A stretch of 64,000 bases of DNA from a virus. Of this stretch, positions 13,265 through 62,000 are shown piece after piece. The stretch covers positions 1 through 64,000 of IMG/VR virus record IMGVR_UViG_3300017917_000616; one strand, 5' to 3'. The notes beneath the pieces are model-generated. The model made no database searches, was not told the origin of the DNA, and was given only the letters and a program-made list of their open reading frames with translations. The translations under genes were made by a program, and so were the position numbers. How positions within the stretch are numbered: the first letter of the stretch is position 1; every line of letters starts with the position of its first letter.

Positions 13265-13657
13265 ATGGCACATTTTGCTGAATTAGATAAAAACAATTTT
13301 GTTATTAGAGTTATTGTTGTTCACGACAATGAATTACTAGACGAAAATGGTATCGAGCAAGAACAAAAAGGAATAGATTTTTGTAAGAGCCTGCTCGGTG
13401 GAAATTGGGTTCAGACGAGCTATAATGGTTCATTTAGAAAGCACTATGCAGGTACAGGATTTTATTACAGCAAAGAATATGATTGTTTCTTCCCACCAAA
13501 ACCATTAGAATACCCATCGTGGGTACTAGACGTTGCTGAGGCTATATGGAAACCACCTATACCAGAACCAAACGACGGTAAAGTATATAGGTGGGATGAG
13601 CCTACTAAATCCTGGTTTAAAATAGGCGACGGTCAAATAACAATAGATATAACTTAA
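13265..13657 (+). CDS. Conserved partner of Gly-rich proteins (MAHFAELD type)
   Basis: MAHFAEL..N.VIRVIVV, WVQTSYN..FRKHYAG.G, PSWVL...W.PP.P.P, Y.WDE. Confidence 0.8.
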   Translation: MAHFAELDKNNFVIRVIVVHDNELLDENGIEQEQKGIDFCKSLLGGNWVQTSYNGSFRKHYAGTGFYYSKEYDCFFPPKPLEYPSWVLDVAEAIWKPPIPEPNDGKVYRWDEPTKSWFKIGDGQITIDIT

Positions 13658-14229
13658 CTGTATTCGTAGGGTGTGTCTGGGTGACTGTAATCAACTTTGA
13701 TATGGTCACCTTTAACATCATCGTATTCTTGATAATATGATTCGTTGGGCATCAATACTCGAAAACTTTCTCCGTACTTTAGTGTAGCAAAAGTTAACTC
13801 AGCTTTATCCAATAAATCACAAATAACGAATCCAGTAGCACATCGTCCTAAGATGTTTTTAAAAGGACTATGCTTAAGTTCATTCTTTTGTAATGCTTTG
13901 TGAATATCACTGTGAGGTCTGAACATAATTCGTGTAATGCCTAACTTTTGATTACGTAAGCGAATCTTGTCAAATATTGTGAGTTGAGTTAGATTAGCGT
14001 TGTTATCTTCATCAATGGTTAATAGAACCTCTTTGACTTTGATACTGCCTTTGGTATGTGAATTATCGGGTGTCTCTTTTGTTGACCATGGAATGTTACA
14101 TTCCACATGATTCACATAATACGTTTCTCCATGAAATTTTAAGACCCACATGGGAACGGTCTCGTCTTCTAAATGCTTTTTGTTGAAATGAAAGACTACA
14201 TCCCTACAAGCAAATTCAATCTATGCCAT
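13654..14229 (-). CDS. Hypothetical protein (191 codons) with an in-frame TAG at codon 3 (amber read-through candidate)
   Basis: AAGGA SD, then ATG(14229) GCA TAG ATT GAA TTT GCT TGT..., reading MA*IEFACRDVVFHFNKKHLEDETVP in frame with the tracked MWVLKFHG ORF. Confidence 0.7.
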
Positions 14230-14230
14230 T

Positions 14231-14635
14231 TTATTTTCCTTTCTTGGTTAGATTCTTTAAATTATTTAGTAGTGTTTGACTACGACTAACTTCTTTCTTT
14301 TTCTTTTGGTGCGTCTGATGGGATTCGAACCCATTACCATGAGTTTTAGAGGCTCTTGCTTTCCTATCAGCTACAGACGCATCAGGATCAACTAACTCAG
14401 TCAATCCTTTAAACTTATCATAAGTGTCAATTATAATTGATTTATAAGTATCTTCAATCTTAATGGGTAAGTCTAGATGAATAGTTAGACGAGGACCCTG
14501 TTCCTCATTAATCATACCGTCACCATATATAGTACCTATAAAAGGTATCTTGTTATACTTACCGAATACACGTGTACCAAACTCAAAATATGGTTTAGGA
14601 CGATTTTTCTCAAAATATTCTGCTAGACTTGCCAT
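14231..14635 (-). CDS. Hypothetical protein whose 3' part runs through a tRNA gene
   Basis: 134-aa ORF; the residues ASVADRK...HQ are encoded by the tRNA sequence. Confidence 0.7.
   Translation of the reverse strand: MASLAEYFEKNRPKPYFEFGTRVFGKYNKIPFIGTIYGDGMINEEQGPRLTIHLDLPIKIEDTYKSIIIDTYDKFKGLTELVDPDASVADRKARASKTHGNGFESHQTHQKKKKEVSRSQTLLNNLKNLTKKGK
14307..14380 (-). tRNA. tRNA with CUA anticodon (amber suppressor type), encoded CCA
   Basis: GCGTCTG-TA-GCT-GATAGGAA-AGC-A-AGAGC-CTCTAAA-ACTCA-TGGTA-ATGGG-TTCGAAT-CCCAT-CAGACGC-ACCA. Perfect 7-bp acceptor and 5-bp T stems; U33-CUA-A37; anticodon stem has two mismatches. Confidence 0.8.
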
Positions 14636-20158: not shown

Positions 20159-21041
20159 TCTTTTTACTCATCAAGTCTTGTACATTTTTCATGTGACGGT
20201 CGATAGCTAAGGCAGAAATGTCTTTGGGGTAAACTAAATTATTTTGTTTATAAAATTCAATAATCTCTTTACTTGATAGCAAGTCACTAAAAAGTTTTTG
20301 ATATCTTTGTTGTATATCTAACGGAGTAGATTTTTTCATAAAAAACCCAGTAGCTATCAAATCAATATCAGTTTTGATTGACAATTCTTTGGGTATAGGA
20401 ATGTTGGCTGTATTATTGTGCGTGGCTGCTATACCATTTAGCAAAGATCCTTGAATCTGTGTTATAGCAGTAACTGACGTTAGGTTAGCAACATCTATTG
20501 AATCTGACATTAGAGCACCAAGTGTTGGCGTATCGCCAGGGAAGGGTACTATAGTTATATTTGGAATATGCTGTAGTGACCTTTCAACAATAAACTTTTG
20601 GCTGATACTAGAAACACCCATTGTAACATGTCTTTTTTTAGTTTCTGCTAAGAATTGATCCCATGTTGTAATCTTAGATTTTTTACTAGTTACAAAAATA
20701 GTATGTATATCTGAAACATACATCATAGGAGATAAGTTTTTGTATAATTCTAAATTGGATTCGTTTTCGCTAAGTTTCAGAGCCAATGTGGTTCCAGCTA
20801 ATAACAAATGGTTACCTGTGTTGTCGTTTAAAAATTCTCTAAGGGCTATTAAACCATCTGCTCCGGGTTTATTTACTACAACAATATTAACGTTTAGTTT
20901 CTCTATCGCCTCTTTTTGAATTCTTCTAGCTAGTGTATCTGATAATCCACCGGGTGGCTGCTGTATGTACAATTTAATTGGTTCATTGGCATGACACAGA
21001 ATAGTAAATGCGAATAATAATAAAGTCAGTAATTTTTTCAT
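20136..21041 (-). CDS. Bug/TctC tripartite tricarboxylate transporter substrate-binding protein A
   Basis: Signal peptide MKKLLTLLL, PPGGLSDTLARR, VVNKPGADG, VPFPG. Start at the second ATG (21041). Confidence 0.82.
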   Translation of the reverse strand: MKKLLTLLLFAFTILCHANEPIKLYIQQPPGGLSDTLARRIQKEAIEKLNVNIVVVNKPGADGLIALREFLNDNTGNHLLLAGTTLALKLSENESNLELYKNLSPMMYVSDIHTIFVTSKKSKITTWDQFLAETKKRHVTMGVSSISQKFIVERSLQHIPNITIVPFPGDTPTLGALMSDSIDVANLTSVTAITQIQGSLLNGIAATHNNTANIPIPKELSIKTDIDLIATGFFMKKSTPLDIQQRYQKLFSDLLSSKEIIEFYKQNNLVYPKDISALAIDRHMKNVQDLMSKKNVNNTNR

Positions 21042-21058
21042 GAACATATTTATAATAG

Positions 21059-21081
21059 AAAAGGCACCGAAGTGCCTTTTT
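21059..21081 (-). terminator. Terminator with cUUCGg tetraloop downstream of the tmRNA
   Basis: AAAAAGGCAC-TTCG-GTGCCTTTT; A/T tracts on both sides, so potentially bidirectional. Confidence 0.85.
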
Positions 21082-21396
21082 CTGAGGTTCTGTTGCGAGG
21101 CCTGTCTTGCCCCAGGCTGCTTTAATTAAGCTGCCAATGCGTAAACTTCATCGTTTGCGTCTATAGTTTTGCTTGATTTACGGTCATCGCCTACCGTGCT
21201 GTCCACTCTGTTACTCTTTGCCCTGTCGAAACCATGACTGGCCCATCATAAAAGGACTACCATGAATACCACTGCTACGATTGCGAATCCCATCGCAAAT
21301 CTTGTTAAGTCATCCATTCTAATCTCCTTTATGGTGGACCAGGCGGGAGTCGAACCCGCGTCCAGAACACTTTTCTCTTTGCTTCATACAGCAATA
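21082..21396 (-). ncRNA. ssrA: Circularly permuted (two-piece) tmRNA; tag (A)ANDEVYALAA
   Basis: The acceptor piece with T-arm and ...CTGGTCCACCA ends at 21332, upstream of the 5' piece GGGCCAGTCATGGTTTCGAC starting at 21244. G3-U70 pair. Tag ORF 21158-21126. Outer ends are approximate. Confidence 0.92.
21246..21317 (-). CDS. 23-aa hydrophobic peptide in the tmRNA intervening segment (MDDLTRFAMGFAIVAVVFMVVLL)
   Basis: AAGGAG SD immediately after CCA, ATG 21317, TGA ending 1 nt before the tmRNA 5' G. Confidence 0.55.
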   Translation of the reverse strand: MDDLTRFAMGFAIVAVVFMVVLL

Positions 21397-21402
21397 ATTT
21401 AT

Positions 21403-21431
21403 AGTGTAGTTTATTTATTGTTATTTGTCAA
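21403..21431 (-). promoter_or_regulatory. sigma70 promoter TTGACA-N17-TACACT for the tmRNA
   Basis: -35 at 21431-21426, -10 at 21408-21403. Confidence 0.75.
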
Positions 21432-21830
21432 TCAGCGTTTGCCCATACGGAACAAATAGATTGGGATATCACGTTCTTTTCGTTTTAATGCGTCACTAAC
21501 TCTATGATGCCCATCTATAATATAGTACTTTCCATTCCTGTCATAGACTACAGGATACTTATCATATTCTGGGTAAAACGCTTCGCCACCGCCTGAGTTG
21601 TCTAACCAGTCTTGTGTAGCAAGTAATTGACTAGGTACTATATTGATGACCATGGGCTTGTAACCTGCATTGAGCATATCATCTACCTCAGTATGTAGTT
21701 CTGCTACATCCTTGAATTTACTAGGGTCAGTAAACTCAGCATCCCAATGTGATAGGTAATCACCCAATTTGATATTAGTAGGTACTCTTTGTAGACCGAA
21801 ATTTTCCGTAATTAAATCAGTGATACGCAT
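21432..21830 (-). CDS. ParB/sulfiredoxin-like domain protein
   Basis: L.ATQ, PVV....G.YYIIDGHHR..A. Start taken at MRITDLITE. Confidence 0.78.
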   Translation of the reverse strand: MRITDLITENFGLQRVPTNIKLGDYLSHWDAEFTDPSKFKDVAELHTEVDDMLNAGYKPMVINIVPSQLLATQDWLDNSGGGEAFYPEYDKYPVVYDRNGKYYIIDGHHRVSDALKRKERDIPIYLFRMGKR

Positions 21831-47054: not shown

Positions 47055-50000
47055 TTATCTTTCGTTAGTGTAGTTACTTTGTAAAAATACAGCTACGGGT
47101 GTTTGACTGATTTGTAGTGGATCACCCTTTACTGGATTATAAACATTACTGTTCCAAACGGAGTCATATTCTGCTGAAGTAAGTCTGCGTGTAGGGATTA
47201 TTCCATAACCCATTTCATTAGCGTAATGTATTTGTGCCACTCTAGTACCCTGAACTCCCCTTGTTAATCCGGAAATAGTATTATTTTGGGTATCAATATT
47301 ATCAAAACGTATACGTTCTCCTAATATCTCTACTATATTTCCAATCGTTAAAGTCACAATCAAAGTATCACCGGCTGATGCGCCGGAACTGAATATTAGA
47401 GCCGGATTACCATTTACTAACTTCAAACCAAAATAACTTTGCGGTAACTGAGTTAATGTGGTTTTGTTATATACTTGGACCTCTTTAACTTCATTAATGT
47501 CGCACTGTACGAATCCATAAATCACAGAGCTTATGTTTACTGTTGTAATTTGCTGTTCGATTGAATCTACTAAGTTAGAAACGTCTTTGAAGTACATTAC
47601 CGTATCATTGATGCCGAAGTTCTGTGTTAGCCAAGACCCATCTTCAGGATTCGTTCTGTACACAGAACCATCACTATACTTATTGACGTTCAAATTATAT
47701 GATATTGGATTCGGGCTTTCGCCGGTAACCATACTGGTAATCATAATATCATCGGTACTAGTTATTTCAGATAGTATAGACAACTTATTAGTTTGGTCAG
47801 TGTTCATTGAGGCGCTAGACACAGTTTGTCCGATATTTACTTCGTATGTTCCGATGCCACCTGTACCGGTGATATAAGAAGTTATTATAGTACCTGGTGT
47901 GATAGACCCACCAAAAATTTCTTGCCCCAAAGTTAAACTACCTTTAGATACACTAGTTACAGTTAATACACCATATGTGTCTGTAGGATAGTTGGGCGCA
48001 AAAGCGATGCTTCCGGTAAATTCGCAATCAGAATTATAAATCATTTGTTCAGGATTAATTCTGTATCCGGCGACAGTAACCCATGTTCTAGCACCATCAG
48101 TGTAGGACATTATAGGAGCACCGGGAGCTACTGTTGGTAATGGTACACTGATTGTATTACTATCTAGCCACGCATATCCAGTACCGGCATAAGGACTTAC
48201 GTTTGTTCCAATCAATGGATTTGTAGTGGCTGAATCCGTATATAAATCAACATAATAATTTGGATCACCTAATATAGTTACAGGATTAACGTAGAATGTT
48301 TTATTATTCAATTCTACTGATCCTGCTATTCCGTCAATTCTTATTAAATCACCCAAAGAGAAATTAGGATCTGTTGTAAAAGTCAATCGTACTGGATTAT
48401 TAGATGTGTTTACAAATTTTATTTCAGTTACTTGTAAACCAGTCACTTCGTCAGTTACTAGATATTGTCTAGTTGTATCATTATACGTAGTGATAGACAC
48501 TATATCATCTGGTGAGACAGTTATAGATGTTAAGTCCAGAGTATCAGACATTAAATTAAACGTATATTCTCCACTTAACAATCTTATTCCATTTACTTCT
48601 ACAATAGCGTTAGTTATATTATCACCCGTTGTTGTAACAAAATTGTAATCTAACGGTATAGAAGTTTCACCTATACTTGATGGTACATATATCTGAGTTT
48701 CAGGAATGCTGTATTCATAAGGTATTAATGTGTCACGTAATATACTAAAAACAATATAATCTACATCCGTATCATACGTATTGTTAATAAACAATAAACG
48801 CAAATAGTTATCATTTGTGAAGGTAACTACATAATCAACAGTATTTGTTAATTTTATTCCGTTAACATAAACTAAAGGTTGAGCATTGTAGGGACGATAT
48901 AGCTGGTTGAATGTGAATTGTGACCATCCAGTATCTGGGTCTATCTCTATAGGAACGTACTTAGAATTCCCTCTTACTACTTCTACGCCGTTGCCTACTT
49001 CGTATAATTCTACCATTAGTACTTCATTAGCACCTAATGCTGAAGATATAGTGATAGTCTGGCCTACCCAATCTATAACATAACTTATAGGATTATTAAG
49101 AGTTGTAGTATTTTCAAAAATTCTATAAGAATAATTTGTTGTCCTATTTAAAACAAATACTGACAATCTAGCAGGATTTACTACGTAATTAGCAAAGCTG
49201 ACTGTTAAGTTAGCATCGGGTACCAATTCAAGTGCTTTCATATTGAAGCCGGTGTGCTTGTACCACACTGTTTGAGAGGAGTCTGTATCCCAGTATGCTC
49301 CAGGAGCCGTATTTACGTACATAGATAATGTATCCGTAACAACTCCTGCGACTAATTCTTCTGGTCCATAACCAAATAAGAAATCATTACCCTTAACAGC
49401 ATATGTAGGTTCGTTTACATTAATGTTTGCTAAGTCAGTCCAGTTAACACCATTAGTGCTACGTAATATGGTATCGTTATCTCCAGCAATATAGAAATAT
49501 GAACCATCAAAGTGTACTGTATTCAAATTATCAGTTGTCACATATTGACTAGTCTGAGGATAAGCATACCAAGTAATTCCGTCTGACGACACTAATATTA
49601 AACCGGGATCAGTTTCACCTGTGCCTATCTTATTTCCTACTGCTACAAATACAGAATTACCAAACGCTACACTATTGATATTTACGGTTGTTGATATATC
49701 AGCAAATACACCGGATAACCAGTTATTTGTATTTGTGCTATAGAATATAGTACCTGAATTTCCAACAATGACAGCACGTGTAGAACTTGAAGCAACACCA
49801 TTTAACTGATTGGTTCCTAACGGAGGTTGTAAAACCCAGTTAGTGTTACCATCAACTGATGTAACAATTTTTCCTACATTAGCAACAGTAGGTAGTGCGG
49901 TACCAGCACCAGATGTTACTACCCCGCCGCCACCTACAGCAATATATCCAACGTATCCTAAAATATTAACATAACTAATATCTTGTAAATTGTTATCTAA

Positions 50001-53000
50001 TCTAGAACCAAATGTGTACACCGGATCAAATTTAACTCCGTTCTCACTACGTAGTAATTTATCTCCCACTACATAGAACACACCATTAACTATTCTAGTA
50101 CCGTACATTGGTAAATTAGGAGCTTCGACCATAGTCGTGTCATATCCACCTTCGCCGAACTCTAGCGTATCAAACGGAGTATATGTTCCTAATGTTATCC
50201 ATCGTATTCCATCGTAACTTACTAATACTGGGTTTTTAATATTTGTAGTAGACATTACGTATCTGTCATTTTCATATGACATATCGGTAATTCCTAATGG
50301 ATACTCACTAATTTTATAGTTGTCCCATGTACCGCTTTGATTTCTAACTAAGACCAATGAGCTAGTAGGAGAATCACACGCGGCTATTAAAGTACTACCA
50401 TTATTAATTACAGCCTTTACATTTACATCAATTGGATAGAATGGTTCGTCACGTAATACAAAGTCTAACGGAATTTCTTCATCTGGAGCAAAAGCATTAC
50501 CGTAGTAAACATTATTAGGATACGTGATTCCTTGTACCAACTGTTGCGGGTCTTTACCTGGCATAGTGATTGCCGGGGTATAGTAACCTTCAATTCTGTC
50601 TAATGCGTTGAGGGCATTATCTGAACTTTGTAATGGATACCATTTTGTAGGATCAAATTCACTATCATTGTTGGCTTGTATACATTGCCACACAATACCA
50701 GCATATGTTACAATCGAACTTAAATTATATCCATAACTGTAATTATTGATTATAGGTTCGGGTAGATAGCAATAATCGGAAATTGAATTACCGTATGGAG
50801 GGAATGGACTAGTTCCACCGTCCCATAAGAATCCGGCGGCACTTACTGGAACCTGTAATTTTGAATCTTGGTACACTGCTAATTCAGTATCGCTTATTGC
50901 CTTAACATAGTATTGTGCTTGTTGGGCAGATGCTACACCATTTACAAATGCGCTATATATTGCTCCCAAGTTTGAAAACTGTACAGTAATTATACAATCA
51001 TTCACAATATCCTGACTTCCTGGACCAAAATTAGATCCAGGTATGACAATCTTATCCCCATCAGAATATATAGAACCTGGATCTAAAATTTGTATATAAT
51101 ACTGGTTAGTCACATTTGCTGGATTAAATTTAGGGGTAGAAATCCAAATCTTTGCGCCACCCGCTAATGTATCATCATATTCATATGTATTAGCTGGTAC
51201 ACCAGGAGTGCCGTCATATGTTTGTACTCTAAAGAAGTACATATAACTGCCACTTACTTGGCCTGGTAAAATTCCACTATAATTATAGTTTACAGTTACG
51301 ACTGCTTGACCGTCTACACTAGCGAAACCTGTAATTGGCATCACAGCACCCTGTAGACTAGCTAAACTAGGATCAACTGGTAAACCAGCGAATGTTATTG
51401 TTTGTATGGTTCCGGCAAAGTTTACAGTACCCACTGTTATGACACAGTTATTTGTAGGTGCTGTACCGTTTAGTTGAGTTCCTAATATAGTTATTACGTC
51501 GCCTGGACTATAACCTGTTCCGCCGTTTTCTATTTCTACATCATATTCATTCGCTAACGATAAGTTATATACGGTGAATGACGCACTAACTCCACCAGCT
51601 GGGCTTACCGTACCTGACATTCCTGTATAAGGCAAACCATAACTTAGTTTTGTAGGATTACTTGCGTCATTTCCTATACTTATATAAGGACTTGAATAGT
51701 AAGTATTTGGTGTCCACTCAGTTACTCTACTGTTGTAGCTAGTTCTGTCAAATTTTAGAACTGGTTTTAACGTTCTAGTTTTAGTATTACCTTGAGTTAC
51801 AATCGCTCTTGGTCTAATGCTAATCTCATGAACATATCCTGAGCTAATTAAACTAGGATTTACAAAAGGAACTTTGTTATTGTTTCTAATTGCGTCATCA
51901 TAAGAAGTATGGAAGGACATGGTAACAGCATTTCCCGGTGTTGCCATAAGCATAAAGGTACTTACAACTATACCAGTAACATTTACGTAATAATAACCAT
52001 CCGGAATAATTGTAATTCCATTGGAAGTAATTCCTTCACTATAAACTATATCTCCGGTTGTATAATCTGTACTGGATAGTATAATTGTATACGTGTTGAA
52101 GTTTATTTTATCTAAAGGAGTTGATATTACGAAACTTGGTTCAAACACAATTTCAGGTGCGACTACATAACCACTTCCGGGAGTTAATACACTTACACCA
52201 ATTACTTTGTCACCGCCCATGACTGCTTGAACGACTGCTTCTTCTCTTGGTGCGGGGTATACAGATGTGTCTATTCTTACTGTTACTTCCGGTGGCTCTT
52301 GATAGCCTCTACCCTCATAAAGAACAACTACTTCAGGTAAATCAATAAAGATTGTTGTTCCAGCAAAGTGACCCGCTGGTGTAGTATTATTAACACCTCT
52401 GGATACACCTACTAGTTTGTTGTTGACTCTATCTACGCCGGTGTAACCAATAAGCTCACTATCTATTTTTATAATACCGTTAAACGGCATTCCATACACG
52501 CTTTCGACATAAATTTCATTATCCAACGTTCCGATATATCTCATTAAAGTCGAAATGTCAGTATTAGGTTGGCTGGTTAAAGTTATGCCGTAATTATTAA
52601 ACCAAGATGTATACTCTTGTGTTTGCCATATTTCATCTGTACTTGTATACTGATATGGAGAACTTGTTACATCTCCGTATGTCAATTCAGGTGAAACAAA
52701 TTTACCCAATGTATCATTGTATTGCGCTGGTAAATCAAAGTCTGTTAAATCACCATCAAATACATCAGTTCTAGAATACTGTAGATAGAAATCTTTTAAT
52801 ACCACATGATATGGTTTTACTTCATTGATATAACCTTCTAATAGACTTTGATTGTCACGCTGGAATTTTTCGTTAGCGGTTAATTCACGAACTGTATAGT
52901 TTACATCTACAAAGCTAGTTTTTGTTAGCCATGGCATGTAGTCTTGGCTTTCGATATTTTCACTTTGAATATATTCAAATAGTAAAATTAAACTCTTATT

Positions 53001-56000
53001 CCTATACTGGAACAAATCATTGATGTAGATTTGTTCATTAAGAGCACGTACAATATATCTTGTTTCTATACTAGGATAAAAATCAAAATCTTCACTGTCA
53101 AAGAAATTATCTCCCCAACCAATCTTATTGCTTTGGTAATCCCAGAGTGTATCTAATAGTTGTATAGTACCATTTTGAACACCGATTCTTTCCCATGTTC
53201 CGGCTTTATATACATAAACTTCCCTGTTTCCTTGACTGTTGCTGACAACACCTACGATTTGTCCTTCTTTTGGTGTCAAAGTTAATAAGTCGCTATACAT
53301 AGGAACATCGAAGGCAGCTCTTGTTGCGTCACTATAACCTTCTGCCCACCAGTATACATTTTCCCAGTATTGAGTGGTATTGAAGTTTTCTCCCTGAGCA
53401 TACAAGAATGTGATATTTCCAAATTCATTTATTGGATACAATTTCAAAATTGTATTAGCATATTCAAAATAGTTTCTTAACGCTTCTAAACGATTTACAA
53501 AGAAACCTTGTCTAGGTCTAATGTTAACACCTTGTTGTAACAACTTAGGTAGATATGGATCTGGAACAATAGCACCAATCTCGTCTGTACCCGAACAACT
53601 ATCAAGAAGTCTATCGTATAACGCTACTGGTGTGTTATATCCTTTATCTCTATCTGGGAAACCAGTTAAGAAATCGTCTGGATAATCACTTCTAATCAAC
53701 TGAAATTCTACGTGACTTGCTGTTGAATCTCCATTAACACCAAAACCTAGATGAAGATTAGTAGAAACATCGTTAATGTACTCTTGGCTATTATACAGAC
53801 CATATGTGTTTGGTCTAAGTGCTGCCATAAAGCTGATACCTGAATTCTTAGGATCAGTAATATATTGAGAAATTATCGTATCACTTAATGTTTTTCCATA
53901 GTGAGAGAAAACTAAATTTGTGTTTCGTACCCAGTAATAGTATTTTGCTATTAGATTATTATTACTATCTGTAAACAGTACTGTGCTGTATTTTCCTATG
54001 TCGTATACTGTACCGGGTCCTACGTAGAACGCTGGTACTACGTCAGATTCTATCCAAGAGTATACCGATACATCGCTTCCTGGGAACACACGACCCCACC
54101 ATTTGCTATTGTATACTACATCATTTTGATGATAGTTTATAAATCGAGTAGTAGAGGTATCGAACCATAATTTACCTATATGGTCTTTAGTCCAAACTTC
54201 TTTGCCTGTATTTAAGTTAGGACCATTATATCCTGCAGGATCAGAAATGCTAATATAGTCCAAGTTTTCTTGTACTACTCCCAACAACTTTCCTTGTAAA
54301 GGATCTATATAATCTAATGAGGCTAAGTTTTGATTATTAGTATTATTATATAACTGAACTTTTCTAATCTTAGTTACGTCTGATATCGGAGCACTCTCAC
54401 GGTATACATGCCAATTATTGATGCCGGTTGTATTTTCATATATTACAACTCTGCCGCCGGCTGCGTTAATATTAAACTTAGGAACACCAATAATAACTTT
54501 ATCATTAGTGAAATCTAACGCAGCACCATACATAGGCTGAGGACCCACAAATGTTAATTTGTCATTACATGATTGTGCGTATACGTATTTTCCAATATTA
54601 TTAAAACTTTCAAGATACGAAGGTATGTAGTTGTACATGTACACACTACCTGCGTTAGATGTTTTATCTTCAAAGAATGTTAGATTGTTGTCGAACACCG
54701 TATCGTTTCTAGTATTTGTGTCAGAAATTAAATCGAATGTAGTTGCCAAATATCTAATACTAGCAGGAGCACTTACAACAAAACTATTTTCATTGTTAAA
54801 CTTCACATTATAACCAAACTGAGTTATTGTTTGTTGGTGTAAGTCATAAATTGTTTGTGACTTAACATAGTCGATGAAGCCCATCATAAACAAATAATTA
54901 CCATTGAACACACTTATATTCAACTTATTGTTTACTTGTCCTAATTCTGGGTATATTAAAAATATTTGAAGTCTGTTATCTTCAGTTGCGTATGCCCTAA
55001 TGTTATCTAAATTAGTTTGATTGATGGCGTTGGCAATGTTAGCAGCATTACCTAATGGTACTACCATTAATGTATCAGATGGAGCAAATGTATTTGCGAA
55101 TGGGAAAGGTACAGCAAATGTGATAACACCAGTCGTTGTATTTCTACTGCTATAGAAAATTGAACGTTCGGGTTGGAATGGGGATGTTGTGTCTTGGAAC
55201 GTTATAACTCCATTAGCTGGCATTTTGGCAGCATCTGATGGGTTAATTGTAACAGTAGTACTGCCGGTAGTTACTGTAGACAATATGTTTATTGTGTTGA
55301 ATAAATTGACGACAAAACCGTTTAATAGGATGTATGTTGCTTCAGTTAAGTTGCAACCAATAACACCCGTAAGTCTACCAAATCGTTTTCCTGTGTTTGT
55401 GAAACGTAATACAGAACCTTCATTGACATTGTTGTTACTTACATCAAATGGTACGCCAACTATCAGTTCACTACCATACTTGTTACAATCCAAACTGTAT
55501 CCAAAATTTTCTCCTTGTCTTAAATCAGAGATATTATCCTGACTCTTTATCATTTGCGATAATACAAAGAAGCTACTTGCTATTGTTACGATATCTCCAG
55601 CAAAAATAGGACCACTAATTTGAACTTTATTTGCTACTACTACATATCTGTCGCTAGGTAATAATTGCTGATTGATATAAACTCTTGCTTTAAATCCAGG
55701 AGAGAATGGTAAAGTCAATACCGCACTTTGATTATTCAATACGTCATATTGAATTTCTACATTTTGCGTAAGCCTATCGTAAATATAGGCTACACCAGTA
55801 TTAGTCAAGTTTACATTTTCATCATAGTATGGGGCACCAATAAACATTTTGCTACCGTCATAATTTGTAGCAATACTTGTACCGTAACCATCACCAAATA
55901 CTTTAACAGGTGGTTCGATGGTGTTAGTATATGTGAAATAGCTATTTACGGTATAAACTTTTGCTCCGGAAGGAATTGTATACTGGATATCTTCTAAACA

Positions 56001-59000
56001 ATAGAATGTTGTTTTATCGTTTATAGAATCATATGTTTCTGTAACTACCGTGTATTGTACGTTTTGACTAAACGCCGTTAAGTAAATACTTGTTCCAGCT
56101 GGTATTTCATATGAAGGATATATTGGCGGTACTAAATAGGCTGTTTCCTTAGTAAAGAAAATTGTTATTGGACTTTCTATAGTTCCAATAGTTGTCAATG
56201 CCCCAGAAGCACTATTAGTATTAGCTACTATAATTAATCCAGCAGCACATAATAGAACAGTGTAGGTACCATTATATGCGGTTGGTACCATACCGGAAAC
56301 AGTTATCGTATCACCAGCTATGTAAGGAGGTGTAGGGTAAGTTACTGTACTATAGGAAAATCCTACAAAGGATGTATTCCAACCCACACTTGTCGGAGAT
56401 ATTTCTCTGTCGTCAAAAGACTCTAATCCAATTGTATATAATCTATCACTATCGGCGCCTGTATTTGAAAAACTAACCTTGTCACCGTATGTTAATACAG
56501 CACGTTGGTCGCCGTAGACTACAAAGAAATCATTACCATCTTCAAATGGATATTGTAGTACCATTCCTGTACTACTGTATGAAGTTAGAAATGAAACACT
56601 TTGTCCTTGATTTATTACAGAGTTATATTCGTATACGCTTTGCGATGCATTTACTAAAGTTTGTATTGGGTAGGATGGGTCTATGTTAACAGTAGTTCTA
56701 CCTGTTCCAGCATTATATGTTCTTGAAGAAACTTTATAAGTTAATCCGTTAACTTGGAAAGAAATCATCATTCCAGGTTGTATCACTGTTGTTTGATTAC
56801 CTAAAACTTGGAATGACGTTGCTCCAATAGAAATACTAGAAAACAATGTTACTCCAGATAGAACTTGATATTGAGTTAGATGCTGACCATTAACTGTAAA
56901 AGTATTATTTCCTACAGTAGTGGCGTTACTCAATGTCATACCAGCACTAATGTATGTAGGGACACTATCTAGTTGCCATGTTATTACACTCTCATCACCT
57001 ATAGCTGAGGTATACAAATAAGCACCATCATCAGAAATAGCCATGCTATCTCCTAACCTTCCACCTGAAACAGTAATTACTTGTTCTAGCGTCAAGCTGT
57101 TAATGTTTGTAGATGTAGGTATCTTATATATGTATAACTGGCTAATGATAGAGCCAGGTTGTGATATTACAACAAACTCATTGCTATGGATTATTGCCTT
57201 ACCAAATTCAGTATTAGGGACAGTGAATGTGTCACGTAAATAGAATGTTCCGCTAGGACTTACACCATAATGGTAAACTGTACCATTGTTACTATCTCCT
57301 ACAAAGTAACCTAAGTTTTCAATATATGCTACACTGTTACCAAAATTGCTAGTAGTTTCAAATTTTTGTAACGGTAGATAATTGTAATTATTTGTCTTTT
57401 CGTATACGGTCCAATTACCTTCTGAGTTATAGTCTACCCATACTTTATTTGTAGTGTAGTCTGAGTTTAGTAACGGTAATCCGTCAATATCTCTAGCACT
57501 TACGACACGTTGACTCTGTAACAAGAAAGTTATGCCCAAGCTAACTATTTCTGTAGTCGTAGTTGGAAGTGTTAGCGCAACAATTATATTAGTTATATCT
57601 AAAACTCTGTCTACTAAGTAGTATCCATTGACTAAAGGATCAAAATTAATTATACCAATTACTTGTTCTTCAAAGTATCCATGAGGTTTATCAAACGTTA
57701 GTGTGACTGTATTGTTATAATTATTTTGTACATTTATTAGCAATGCGCCTGTACTATACGGCGTGTATACTTGCCATTCATTCTTCTTATCGGCTACCCA
57801 AATATAATCATTTTTATAGATTGTATTGATAGCACCATCTACTAAATCATTAATAGAGTATCCTATCTCTATCATATCATCGATGTTAGCGTATCCGGCG
57901 CTTGGTAATTTTTCTTGATATCCCGATTCCACCGTAGGCAAAATATTTTCGTTTTCTATCGGTCTAGCATAGTTTCTGATATTATAAAGAGGTATTTCTT
58001 GTTGTGCTCCATCAACAGATTCATCTTTGATTACGCTAACAATGCTTGGATTACCTGTTAACTTAGTCTCATTCAATGTAACTTCGATGAAGTTTTGATT
58101 GTTCAATCCACCAAACTCAGTAGTCTTAATAGCCCAATTTTCGTGAACATCATAGTTTAAGGTATTTTCTTGTAATACAACACCTTGTAGTCTGGTTACA
58201 CTCTCTACAGTTCCCTTACTTCCTATCATATTTTTGTACACGTTTACTTGTGTAGCATCATCCAAATTAGCGTCTGCTAAATATTGTCTTGGTCTATAAC
58301 CAATCAATGAGAATGATAGTAAGTCTGCGTCTGATTCTAAGTTTGCCTTGTTAGGATCATAGAAGTAAACTGCCTCAGCGGCTCTAGTACTTGGATTTGG
58401 TAATAATCCTTTTTGAATCATTTCGTAATCTGTTTTCATCCAATCATTATAATTGAACTTCACAGAAGGTAGTATGACTGTCTTATCTGCGATATAGTAG
58501 TCATTCTTAAATTTGACAATGGTTCCTTTGTTATATTTTACATTTTCCTTCCATTCCTCAATGTTATCTTGATTGAGTATGAAGCCGGCGGCGTTTACTT
58601 GACCGTTCCATTCAGCGGTCTTAGAGCCCTTAACGTAAATTCTTTGTTGACGCAATCCTGTTGTCAAATTATAGATTACGTCATTGAATACAGTAATATT
58701 ATCAAACAAAACAACATGTTCAAAGGTACTTAAATTTCCTCTGAAGAAACTTATAGTATCACCTTGATTTAATGTCTTAACATTGAATTCCGTATCGTTT
58801 CTATAAACAGATAGGTCACTCAATCCAATTGGTATCAAGTTCTGATTAAGAATGAAATTCTCTTGGAAGAATGTTAATGGTTGAACAATAGAATTTTCTT
58901 TATTAATAGAAATTATTCTAGCGCATGGGTTAACGTTAATAGTGCTACCTACATCCCATCCAGTCTGTATCCAATATGCCAATTCAGCAATCATTTGTTC

Positions 59001-62000
59001 CCAAGTTAGTTGTAGTCCGTTTTCTACATCGTCAAACTTGAATCCTTGACTTTCTAAGTACAGACCATAACCTCTAATGAAGGCTGCTAGATTATTTACG
59101 TTGGTGAACTCTACACCATATGGTGTAACTATAGTTTGGTCGTAATATTGTTTCGGTATTTGTATGGTCAATCCATTTACAATCACCGTATCGAACAGAC
59201 CATTCATCATAGGTATCTTACTTGTGAAGTATGCTCTGTTCTGACTATTTCCGAAAACTTTATATCCTCTGTCAGTACGTTGAATAATCAATGAAGAATA
59301 TATTAGCGTATCTGTAGGTTGGTTATCATATAACAAGATGCTGTAACTGTCATCAGGAATTAGCAGACTAGTATTTTTACTATCGGGTGTTCCCTTTTCA
59401 ACATAAAAATTCAATAGGTCTTTATCACTAAATCCGGCTAACCTATAACCTAATCTAACATCTAAGTTAGTAATCAGATTACTAATTTCTGTGCCACCAT
59501 CCATTCCAAATTGATATAGATAATCAACTAACCAGTTTGTGTAACTATGAACACTGGTGCCATTACCATAGATAGTCATATTGGTTAGCGGATTTCTAAA
59601 GCGATTATTATATAGGTACTGGTTGAACTCAGTATTATACTTATAATTGTCAACATCTATGCCTAAGGCAAAGAATCTAGCTGGCTTAGTTAATGCCATT
59701 ATTCGCATTAGGTCGAATGGAAAACTACTACTTCTATGGTAGCTAAATTCTGCGGCTCCCATGTCGCCCACGATCCAGTCATTCTTGAATGCTTCAATAT
59801 TATATGAGCCTATTACATTAGAGAAGGGATCTAATAAATTGCCATTGCTATCAACAGGAATGATATCCATCAATCCATCACGAATCCTCTGTTCATTTAC
59901 ATAAGGATTGCCATCATTCCATACATATCCATTAGCAATATCTTGCCACATATATGTATTATCTTTGGTATACGGAGTTGTACCGTATCTAGTATCCCAC
60001 CAACTTGGTTTGCTAGTTAAGCCAAGCATTTCCCATGGTCTGGTATCTGGATTAGTAGTGTCATAAAGCCATAAGTATATACCATGCCAATTACCTTGTT
60101 TAACGTATTGATTATTAAAGTTAAACTTAGATTGTCTGTAGTTGTATGTGTATGGATTTGATGGATCATAGTACTGATCGGTATAATTAATACGATTAGT
60201 TCCGATCCAGTTTAAAAATTGAATTGTATATATTTGTCTGTATTGTTCAAATGTGACGCCCACATCTCTAAACTGACCGGGTACTACTTCATCGTAGTTA
60301 ATAGGAATAGCAGAACTTATTTTTAGATTGTTATAAATTCTCTTTTCAAATTCAAATAATACATTATCTCTATAGTCACTTAATATACCGTTATCATATG
60401 TACCATAAAGTTTAGTATAAGATCCATCATGACCCTTGATAAACCAGGTTGGAGTTACATATGTATTGTCATATACAATTTCTGGCATATACGCAGGATA
60501 CAAGCCTAATTTAGTAGGTGTGTTTGGTACAAAACTTCCGTAAGTTTGATTGTATTCTTTAATGGTGATTACATCATTGTTTACTAAATCAGTTGTTATT
60601 GTTAGCGAAGGATCTGTTTCGCTTACAGTGTAATCTACACCTTTAATTAACTGAGATACAACCATTTGTCCGTTGATTTTTCTAGTTAGATAAACTAAAA
60701 CACCGTAGTAATTAGCAGAATTAAAATCATAAACTCTGCTTAAGTTGTAGACGCTAGTTGATACATTGCTTTTAAACACATAGGTATTGGTAATATATGC
60801 GTTCTTACTAGGAAGCATATCAGACCAAAAGAATGGATTAGAATCGATTTTAGTTTGTGTTATCTTATCTAAAGAATCATCTAAAAGATTTGATGGATTC
60901 TCATAAGATTGAAATTCACCTCTAGTTAGTGTGTCAATTAATTTGGCCTTGAACTTGATATATTCATTACCGTTAAATGCTAAAGCATCAAAGAAGTTAT
61001 TATAGTTATTACGCAAAAATGCGCCGGCGTTCACCACCGGAGCACTATTTTGAATAATCTTAGTACCGTAAGGTATGATATTACCTAAGTCTCTGTAATT
61101 ATTAGATCCAAAAGCAATACCAGAAAAATCAGGAGCATTGTTAACGATGCTCTTATAATGACCACGTATATCACCTAAATTGATAGAACTAATCTCACTG
61201 TTAAAAGGATTGTGATCTAGATTAGTAGGTACCTGATAGTAACCGGTGGTTGTAGTTTGGTCACTGTATAATAAAATATCTACTGGTGTGCCTAAAGGTA
61301 TTGTTCTGTTTAGCGTGATAGTTGTAGAGTTATCCGTTGTAGCGATAGAATAATCTGAGCTGGACAACCTAGCATTATCAACATACACCACTATTACAGG
61401 CCAATTAGTAGTGGTAGAATCTTTTATTTTTACATCGCAAATAAAGGTTGGTACAGCCGGAACACCATTGTATTTGAAATTAAACACTTGAAATTGGAAG
61501 CTGTCATCAGCGGCAGTTTGCCAACCTATTTCTCTATTATAATCTATTCTATTCGTGTAATTATACACATACCCAATGTTGATATTTTCAGTCAATGATT
61601 TATTTTGTTGTACATAATTGAAGGTTTGACTATTCAATGTCACATCGAAAACAATATCACCTAAGTTATTCAAAGAACTATAACTAATTGGGAATCCTAA
61701 TATTGGATCATCTGCGCCAGACCCTGGCTTATATTCAAATAATGTAGACCCGGCAAAATTACTACTAGGATAAAAATCCATGTCACTTAAACTTACCCCA
61801 TTGCTATCAAATACATCGAATAAAGGTGGTTGATTGACTCTTTCTTTTTGTTGAGTTAGTTGCCAATTGAGTCCATCAAAGTAGTAAGTTTTTCCTATAT
61901 AGTTTTCACCTAAAACTATAACACACTGCTCATCATATAATACATCTGATCCTAATTGTGTCAATGTTATAACAGGATCTTGACCTTGAACAACTGTAGA

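Follow-up and report, generated by a model that had tools for sequence, protein, structure and literature searches.

The locus studied here raises the question whether a complete tRNA and the protein gene that encloses it on the same strand can both be genuine products of one stretch of DNA. Annotators and gene finders regard a tRNA within an ORF as an error. The material is IMG/VR record IMGVR_UViG_3300017917_000616; ‘the window’ denotes the whole stretch that was analysed, i.e. positions 1 to 64,000 of a record of 92,602 bp (G000). The source is a huge freshwater phage, and the record is probably a fragment of a genome of about 350 kb, a size estimated from relatives of 147 kb that are rated 40% complete. 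Based on sequence comparison, we propose with a probability of roughly 0.7 that the tRNA and the full-length protein are both functional products of the same, dual-use DNA.

Anatomy of the locus

The features on which the analysis is based are the following:

14231..14635, minus strand: gene X, the 134-aa ORF enclosing the tRNA, composed of an N-terminal domain, a tRNA-coded linker and a tail, with its TAA at 14233-14231 (ORF list, 120 homologues)
14381..14635, minus strand: N-terminal domain of X, codons 1-85, a predicted SH3-like small barrel (marginal match to Pfam PF20066, dN/dS 0.25, weak Foldseek matches)
14307..14380, minus strand: amber-suppressor tRNA(CUA), 74 nt, CCA encoded, doubling as X codons 86-110 (ARAGORN, Rfam, covariation)
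14234..14305, minus strand: tail of X, codons 111-134, with a Lys-rich stretch and the amphipathic helix motif LL-x-N-L-K (dN/dS 0.29)
14430..14457, minus strand: sigma-70-like promoter motif within X, TTGAAG-16-TATAAT, of putative function (scan)
14237..14240, minus strand: Shine-Dalgarno core AGGA of gene Y, made by the final codons of X (read from the sequence)
13654..14229, minus strand: gene Y, 191 codons, the third being TAG (14223-14221); likely client of the tRNA (78/78 loci, homologue lengths)
21057..21444 (also placed at about 21035-21444), minus strand: two-piece (permuted) tmRNA gene, given as context (Rfam RF01850 146 bits, RF04321 142 bits; ARAGORN tag ANDEVYALAA)

Codon 86 of X opens with nucleotide 1 of the tRNA (phase 0) and codon 110 ends at 14306, the X frame being free of stops across the whole tRNA. 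The first-pass annotation of this DNA had described a 74-nt tRNA lying wholly and stop-free within the 134-aa ORF on the same strand, and ARAGORN, Rfam and the ORF list agree with it; its statement that the phage carries its own tmRNA is likewise borne out by Rfam and ARAGORN. It had also noted that X ends just before the ATG of the amber gene, and indeed a single base separates the TAA of X from the ATG of Y (14229-14227). This abutment is a feature of the window, as Y begins 242-1896 nt past the tRNA in most relatives. Apart from gene Y, the genetic code of the window is the standard one. Elsewhere in the window, a minus-strand frame at 47055-63998 stays open for at least 5,647 codons and runs off the window end; it represents the gene of a giant protein.

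The tRNA(CUA): identity and selection on the RNA

The window tRNA is called by ARAGORN and by the Rfam tRNA model, the latter with 59.5 bits against a cut-off of 29. ARAGORN reads the anticodon as CUA in each of the 53 distinct family members from the fetched loci. For the nested arrangement we compared the 19 tRNAs called by ARAGORN, 14 of which are in phase 0 and 5 in phase 2. The UCUAAA core of the anticodon loop and the CCA are invariant among them, 87% of the stem cells are paired, and 11 of the 21 pairs are altered on both sides, with compensatory changes seen in all four stems. The covariation score of this set is 0.415, compared with 0.18 for shuffles and at most 0.13 for slid controls. 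These comparisons indicate that the nested cloverleaf and its CUA anticodon are maintained by selection.

Concerning the unusual bases of the tRNA, the final pair of the anticodon stem (31:39, corresponding to columns 32 and 40 of the nested tRNA alignment, A2) is mismatched in every one of the 19 nested tRNAs (C.A or A.C), and the sequence pattern recurs in free-standing copies. The anticodon arm of the free-standing L162 is identical to that of the window, and the free-standing L202 carries U15 and A48. Protein-coding constraint had been suggested by the first-pass annotation as the origin of the odd anticodon stem and of U15/A48; since free-standing copies share them, they are traits of the family. 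The tRNA of a cultured Rhizobium phage has a normal A-U at 31:39.

In tRNA-Pyl, a single base separates the acceptor and D stems, the anticodon stem has 6 bp, the variable loop has 3 nt and the small D-loop lacks GG. The window tRNA, which ARAGORN labels as tRNA-Pyl, differs in each of these respects: two bases lie between the stems, the anticodon stem reaches 5 pairs at most, the variable loop has 5 nt, and the D-loop contains GG. The label comes from the anticodon alone and was rejected. Comparison with the 46 clustered tRNAs of a 260-kb relative is ambiguous on amino-acid identity, the best match being Arg(ACG) at 0.73. Two further tRNA observations were made. A 46-tRNA cluster in a relative contains, at L295 (7335-7434, minus strand, record of L002), a 100-nt ARAGORN tRNA with a four-base anticodon (ctcc), which could contain an intron or be a quadruplet decoder. 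Also, Xanthomonas phage XacN1 (L292, AP018399.1) has two tandem annotated tRNA-Sup genes at 2418-2576, one of which is 77.6% identical to the free-standing family member L236.

Conservation of the nested arrangement

A search of 5.8 billion proteins yielded 120 homologues of X. At the DNA level, IMG/VR and JGI metagenomes provided 18 distinct X genes, the most divergent with 41% protein identity, that contain a tRNA(CUA) at residues 81-86, in phase 0 throughout; one of these tRNAs (L027) is missed by ARAGORN and found by Rfam with 43.4 bits. At the protein level, 32 database clusters show a tRNA-type peptide followed by a conserved tail with the motif LL-[DE]-[NR]-L-K. About 60 of the X homologues are short forms of 78-102 aa, which stop before the point equivalent to the tRNA. 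A stop before the tRNA in close relatives had been named by the first-pass annotation as the observation that would speak against it; instead, the 18 DNA relatives and the 32 clusters read through to the conserved tail.

The length of the nested tRNAs is only 74 or 77 nt, i.e. a 3-nt step, whereas that of 35 free-standing ones ranges over 73-77 nt and is mostly 75 or 76 nt. The host frame of phase 0 is open in 14 of 14 nested tRNAs versus 6 of 35 distinct free-standing ones, and the host frame of phase 2 in 5 of 5 versus 1 of 35. An open frame in all 19 nested tRNAs, compared with 6/35 and 1/35 in the free-standing set, is beyond chance. We infer that coding constraint accounts for the length class of the nested tRNAs and for the absence of in-frame stops. 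The nesting in the window is neither a product of chance nor a sequencing error. Open frames span five free-standing tRNAs; they start 1-25 codons before the tRNA, without an upstream gene, and these ‘standalone but spanned’ cases were not accepted as nested.

The tRNAs of the phase-2 group (L089, L101, L114, L146, L151) start from residue 76 of the host protein, and the ORF stops 5-47 nt after the tRNA, without the conserved tail. L084 and L087 encode a peptide of the phase-2 type, with a borderline tRNA that reaches 28.1 bits against the Rfam cut-off of 29. In other layouts the tRNA is found 7-12 nt upstream of X, or 1.8-2.6 kb away from it, or without X nearby. Among the database proteins, P0021, P0028 and P0088 have kept the tail with a degenerate tRNA peptide, while P0037 and P0039-42 have the peptide of the 5' half of the tRNA and the tail, the T-arm peptide being absent; both states are read from protein sequences only. 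A scan of genome contigs with P0040 gave nothing, and a scan of viral contigs gave no close relative of P0040. In a tree of the 78-residue N-terminal domain, the X genes with a phase-0 nested tRNA fall into 4 clusters; the tree is poorly resolved and compatible with one or several origins of the nesting.

A rival explanation is that the nested copy of the window is itself a relic which serves only to encode a linker, any suppression being due to another tRNA of the genome of about 350 kb. Clear relics occur in some lineages (P0028, P0088, P0037-42; seen as proteins), L084 and L087 fall just below the cut-off, and the window's record is just a 92.6-kb fragment. The score of the window tRNA argues against this, as do the compensatory changes seen in each of the four stems, the invariant anticodon loop and CCA, and the conserved TAG in Y, which needs a suppressor. 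In the 260-kb relative, which is 74% complete, the 46-tRNA cluster covers all amino acids without including a CUA anticodon; the nested tRNA, 136 kb from this cluster, is the sole CUA among the 47 tRNAs found. As it is the only suppressor there, decay to a coding relic is ruled out for that relative, and for the window we consider it very improbable.

Protein X: fold, linker and tail

The N-terminal domain of X matches Pfam PF20066 (Glyoxalase_8) with 24.0 bits, the cut-off being 23.7, over X residues 10-60 and profile positions 55-105 of 143. The AF2 model folds residues 1-80 into a small beta-barrel (pLDDT 85-94), for which Foldseek gives weak matches to CAP-Gly, Tudor and KOW barrels. The residues coded by the tRNA have a pLDDT of 51-60, and the tail helix (118-132) one of 72-83. 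The model thus predicts that the tRNA-coded residues are a flexible, low-confidence linker between the barrel and the tail helix. No DNA or protein match to X or to a neighbouring gene was found in the isolated-phage database.

The tail bears on whether the protein extends beyond the tRNA. Its codons contain no stops and evolve with a dN/dS of 0.29, close to the 0.25 of the N-terminal domain, and the third-position excess is 0.52 versus 0.32 and 0.27. The two wrong frames of the same region contain 27 and 83 stops and give dN/dS values of 0.84 and 2.7. Serine codons of the tail alternate between AGT and TCT in relatives. The tail of the window has no start codon of its own; since it is under selection, ribosomes must translate through the tRNA sequence to reach it. 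The purifying selection shows that the tail is translated, though not in what amount. Within the tRNA segment of X, synonymous divergence is low and triplet periodicity is absent, as expected if constraint on the RNA dominates there.

An annotation artefact, in which the protein would end near residue 80-85 and the open frame beyond would be fortuitous, has to explain these values. It agrees with the majority of the X homologues being short, at 78-98 aa, and ending before the equivalent point, and with the phase-2 ORFs, which end 5-47 nt after the tRNA without the conserved tail. It conflicts with the frame being stop-free in every nested relative, with the dN/dS of a tail that has no start codon of its own when set against the wrong frames, with the survival of the tail motif in tRNA-less forms, and with the free-standing tRNAs of the family being rarely open in these frames; we regard it as hardly credible. 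Some nested X genes run on for 124 nt past the tRNA to a distal basic motif, which they have in common with tRNA-less X genes (L006/L085 vs L008/L082).

Gene Y and the amber codon

The in-frame TAG of Y is found one to four codons past the ATG in 78 of 78 related IMG/VR loci with a visible 5' end, as well as in all X-centred loci that show Y, and a conserved IE-[FY]-AC motif directly follows it. The tRNA(CUA) is usually on the same strand and upstream of Y, at a distance of 21 nt to 2.3 kb (loci L161-L240). Database homologues of Y are full length at 189-193 aa. The AF2 model of Y contains a confident strand at residues 4-16, just past the TAG, so that a start at Met27 would be predicted to truncate the fold. 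No Pfam, PHROG or Foldseek match was obtained for Y; its C-terminal half is weakly ferredoxin-like or ACT-like (VIA-align, Z ≤5.2).

When TAG is read as a sense codon, only one credible gene of the window is lengthened. Among 84 greedy ORFs of the 92.6-kb record, 54 end with TAA, 26 with TGA and 4 with TAG, TAG and TGA being equally common as words in the record. The four ORFs ending with TAG are all short (65-80 aa) and doubtful, and at least one of them (21262-21459, plus strand) is antisense over the tmRNA gene. TAG may therefore be unused as a stop in this phage. The tRNA(CUA) likely serves the TAG of Y, and translation of Y past codon 3 would then require it.

Database homologues of Y (P0121-P0240) have Gln where all the fetched DNA reads TAG. 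This may be an effect of gene calling with a code in which TAG is Gln (code 15), and is not independent evidence for Gln. Gene calls of 164/165 aa and of 179/180 aa begin just past the TAG site, which looks like an effect of the gene caller choosing a later start. At about 2430-2754, the cultured Rhizobium phage RHph_I1_18 (L294, MN988519.1) contains an unannotated Y-like ORF with a TAG at the same place and, about 30 nt further on, a tRNA annotated as tRNA-Pyl(cta). The Y homologue of Agrobacterium phage Atu_ph07 (L293) has no TAG.

Promoters of the tRNA

The -10 box of the motif inside X of the window ends 49 nt before the tRNA. A motif of the form TTGAnn-16-TATAAT is present inside X in 21 of 22 distinct nested genes. 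The codons that make it up specify I-[DE] and V-I-I, and the gap between its end and the tRNA is 37-49 nt in phase 0 and 21 nt in phase 2. Its score is 10 or more of 12 in 20 of 21 nested X genes, compared with 3.6% of random windows. It sits in conserved codons and is also present in about one third of the X genes without a nested tRNA. The Ile codon which forms the -10 box is ATA in 21 of 21 nested genes, versus 23% of Ile codons elsewhere; this is suggestive only, since 19 of 27 non-nested X genes with the same x-Ile-Ile residues also have ATA. The internal motif may supply the tRNA, perhaps much of it, independently of the X start.

Free-standing tRNAs of the family have a strong sigma-70 promoter of which the -10 box ends 7-10 nt before the first base of the tRNA, with a score of 10 or more of 12 in 23 of 35 cases, again compared with 3.6% of random windows. 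At this distance the pre-tRNA would have nearly no 5' leader. Within the 40 nt ahead of the tRNA, near-consensus promoters are seen at L094, L171, L206, L209, L214, L217, L219 and further loci. The possibility of a T4-type late promoter (TATAAAT) was rejected, as this sequence precedes the tRNA in one of 21 nested cases and in one of the 37 others.

Distribution of the tmRNA

A permuted tmRNA above the RF04321 cut-off is found in 5 of 5 nested and 5 of 5 non-nested relatives. The link between the nesting and trans-translation by the phage tmRNA that had been drawn from the window sequence is thus not specific. The tmRNA gene of the window is 6.7 kb from the tRNA(CUA), and in every relative checked (records of L004, L163, L172, L001 and L002) it is a few kb from the tRNA(CUA)/Y locus, as if tmRNA, tRNA(CUA) and Y were one translation module. 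Amber suppressors are reported to raise read-through to mRNA ends and thus the demand for tmRNA (Ueda et al. 2002, Genes Cells), which would account for suppressor and tmRNA occurring together throughout the lineage, irrespective of nesting.

Proposed use of the transcripts

In the dual-use reading, selection keeps both uses of the DNA, as the comparisons show: the cloverleaf and the CUA anticodon for the sake of the tRNA, and the open frame with the 74/77 nt length class for access to the tail. Each transcript would have one of two fates. If uncut, it would be translated into full-length X; if cut, RNase P and 3' processing enzymes would release the tRNA, leaving a stop-less 5' piece that ends right after codon 85 and a 3' piece bearing the Shine-Dalgarno sequence and start of Y. 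The first-pass annotation had argued that a given transcript can yield either the excised tRNA or the full-length protein, and that excision would leave these two pieces, which follows from the anatomy. The tRNA, and in the window also Y, would be transcribed in part from the putative promoter inside X, on RNA without the X start, and longer operon transcripts would be either translated into full-length X or cut. The nesting itself would have arisen by compaction or by insertion into a tolerant linker, rather than as a purpose-built switch.

A more elaborate possibility is that the nesting is an adaptive switch, in which the traffic of ribosomes on X competes with tRNA processing and so tunes the levels of suppressor, X and Y, the tmRNA clearing X(1-85). 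The RNase P cut would lie exactly between codons 85 and 86, the 3' piece would begin 77 nt before the ATG of Y, the nesting is maintained in several clades and in two phases, the tmRNA gene is within a few kb, and a published account of selB/selC (PMC8124441) proposes just such a model. These points have to be weighed against a tmRNA that is equally frequent with a free-standing tRNA, and against the majority of family members, in which the tRNA has its own promoter without a host ORF, so that the tRNA-Y system works un-nested. Also, several lineages have dropped the tRNA and retained the protein, and the internal promoter-like motif may uncouple the supply of tRNA from the translation of X. 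The control of suppressor supply by ribosome traffic, as had been suggested for the window, is not required, since the conserved sigma-70-like motif could make the tRNA, and we consider a switch of this kind unlikely.

A bolder proposal would make X a dedicated partner of its suppressor tRNA, as SelB is for tRNA-Sec, i.e. a barrel protein binding RNA or the ribosome, the amount of which is set against the tRNA by the shared transcript. Under this proposal, huge freshwater phages would possess a self-timed switch of translation made up of X, the tRNA and the amber-gated Y, with the tmRNA clearing by-products of read-through and non-stop translation. We mention this as a distinctly improbable reading.

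Relation to known systems

The closest known case is selC (tRNA-Sec) nested in the selB ORF of Alphaproteobacteria (Mukai 2021, Int J Mol Sci 22:4605, PMC8124441), for which a choice between tRNA processing and translation was proposed, with a non-stop 5' mRNA and a short-leader 3' mRNA as outcomes; that proposal is bioinformatic only. The two cases are alike in that a whole sense-strand recoding tRNA, reading a stop codon, lies within a protein ORF, that tRNA lengths fitting the register keep the frame across relatives, and that the stop of the host ORF (for X, in the window) abuts the next start. Some selB lineages retain pieces of the tRNA within their coding sequence, and the decayed forms of X, seen as proteins, may be a parallel to them. 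They also share the proposed outcome and its bioinformatic basis. They differ in several respects: selC/selB is bacterial and concerns tRNA-Sec, whereas the window case is from a phage and concerns an amber suppressor; the extension of selB is translated tRNA only, whereas in X the tRNA is placed mid-protein and is followed by a tail under purifying selection; and X, unlike selB, has no known tie to its tRNA. Also, the family studied here combines nesting in two phases with several free-standing layouts, and the client stop codon is in the adjacent gene.

Mitochondrial tRNAs within protein genes are also known, e.g. tRNA-Lys in cox1 of Armadillidium vulgare. As far as that case is described in PMC8124441, where it is cited, it resembles the present one in having a complete tRNA in direct orientation in a coding region, with mRNA and tRNA as alternative products. 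According to the same description, the organelle genome in question is extremely compact and its tRNAs are truncated, whereas here a canonical cloverleaf is found in a genome of about 350 kb with room for a 46-tRNA cluster.

Gut phages with stop-codon recoding read TAG as Gln by means of suppressor tRNAs (PMC10879173). They share with the window a phage tRNA(CUA) that reads an in-frame TAG, a host with the standard code and the avoidance of TAG as a stop. In contrast to them, there is no genome- or block-wise recoding in the present case, the TAG is among the first codons of a single conserved gene, the tRNA is nested in a CDS, and there is no associated ribozyme.

A full-text search of the literature gave no case of a phage tRNA in a CDS. 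The only published bacterial precedent for a tRNA nested in a protein gene is selC in selB, which came without a test of selection on the protein side. What is new here is that the nested tRNA is an amber suppressor of a phage, that it lies mid-protein ahead of a selected tail that proves translation through it, that one family shows the nested, free-standing, decayed and deleted states side by side, and that the client amber codon belongs to the adjacent gene. The X family makes the notion of one RNA with two fates testable, both for the protection of a pre-tRNA from RNase P by translation and for the fate of the stop-less piece. The tRNA is tied to a single conserved amber-gated gene, and as the cultured Rhizobium phage shares this layout, amber gating can be studied directly there.
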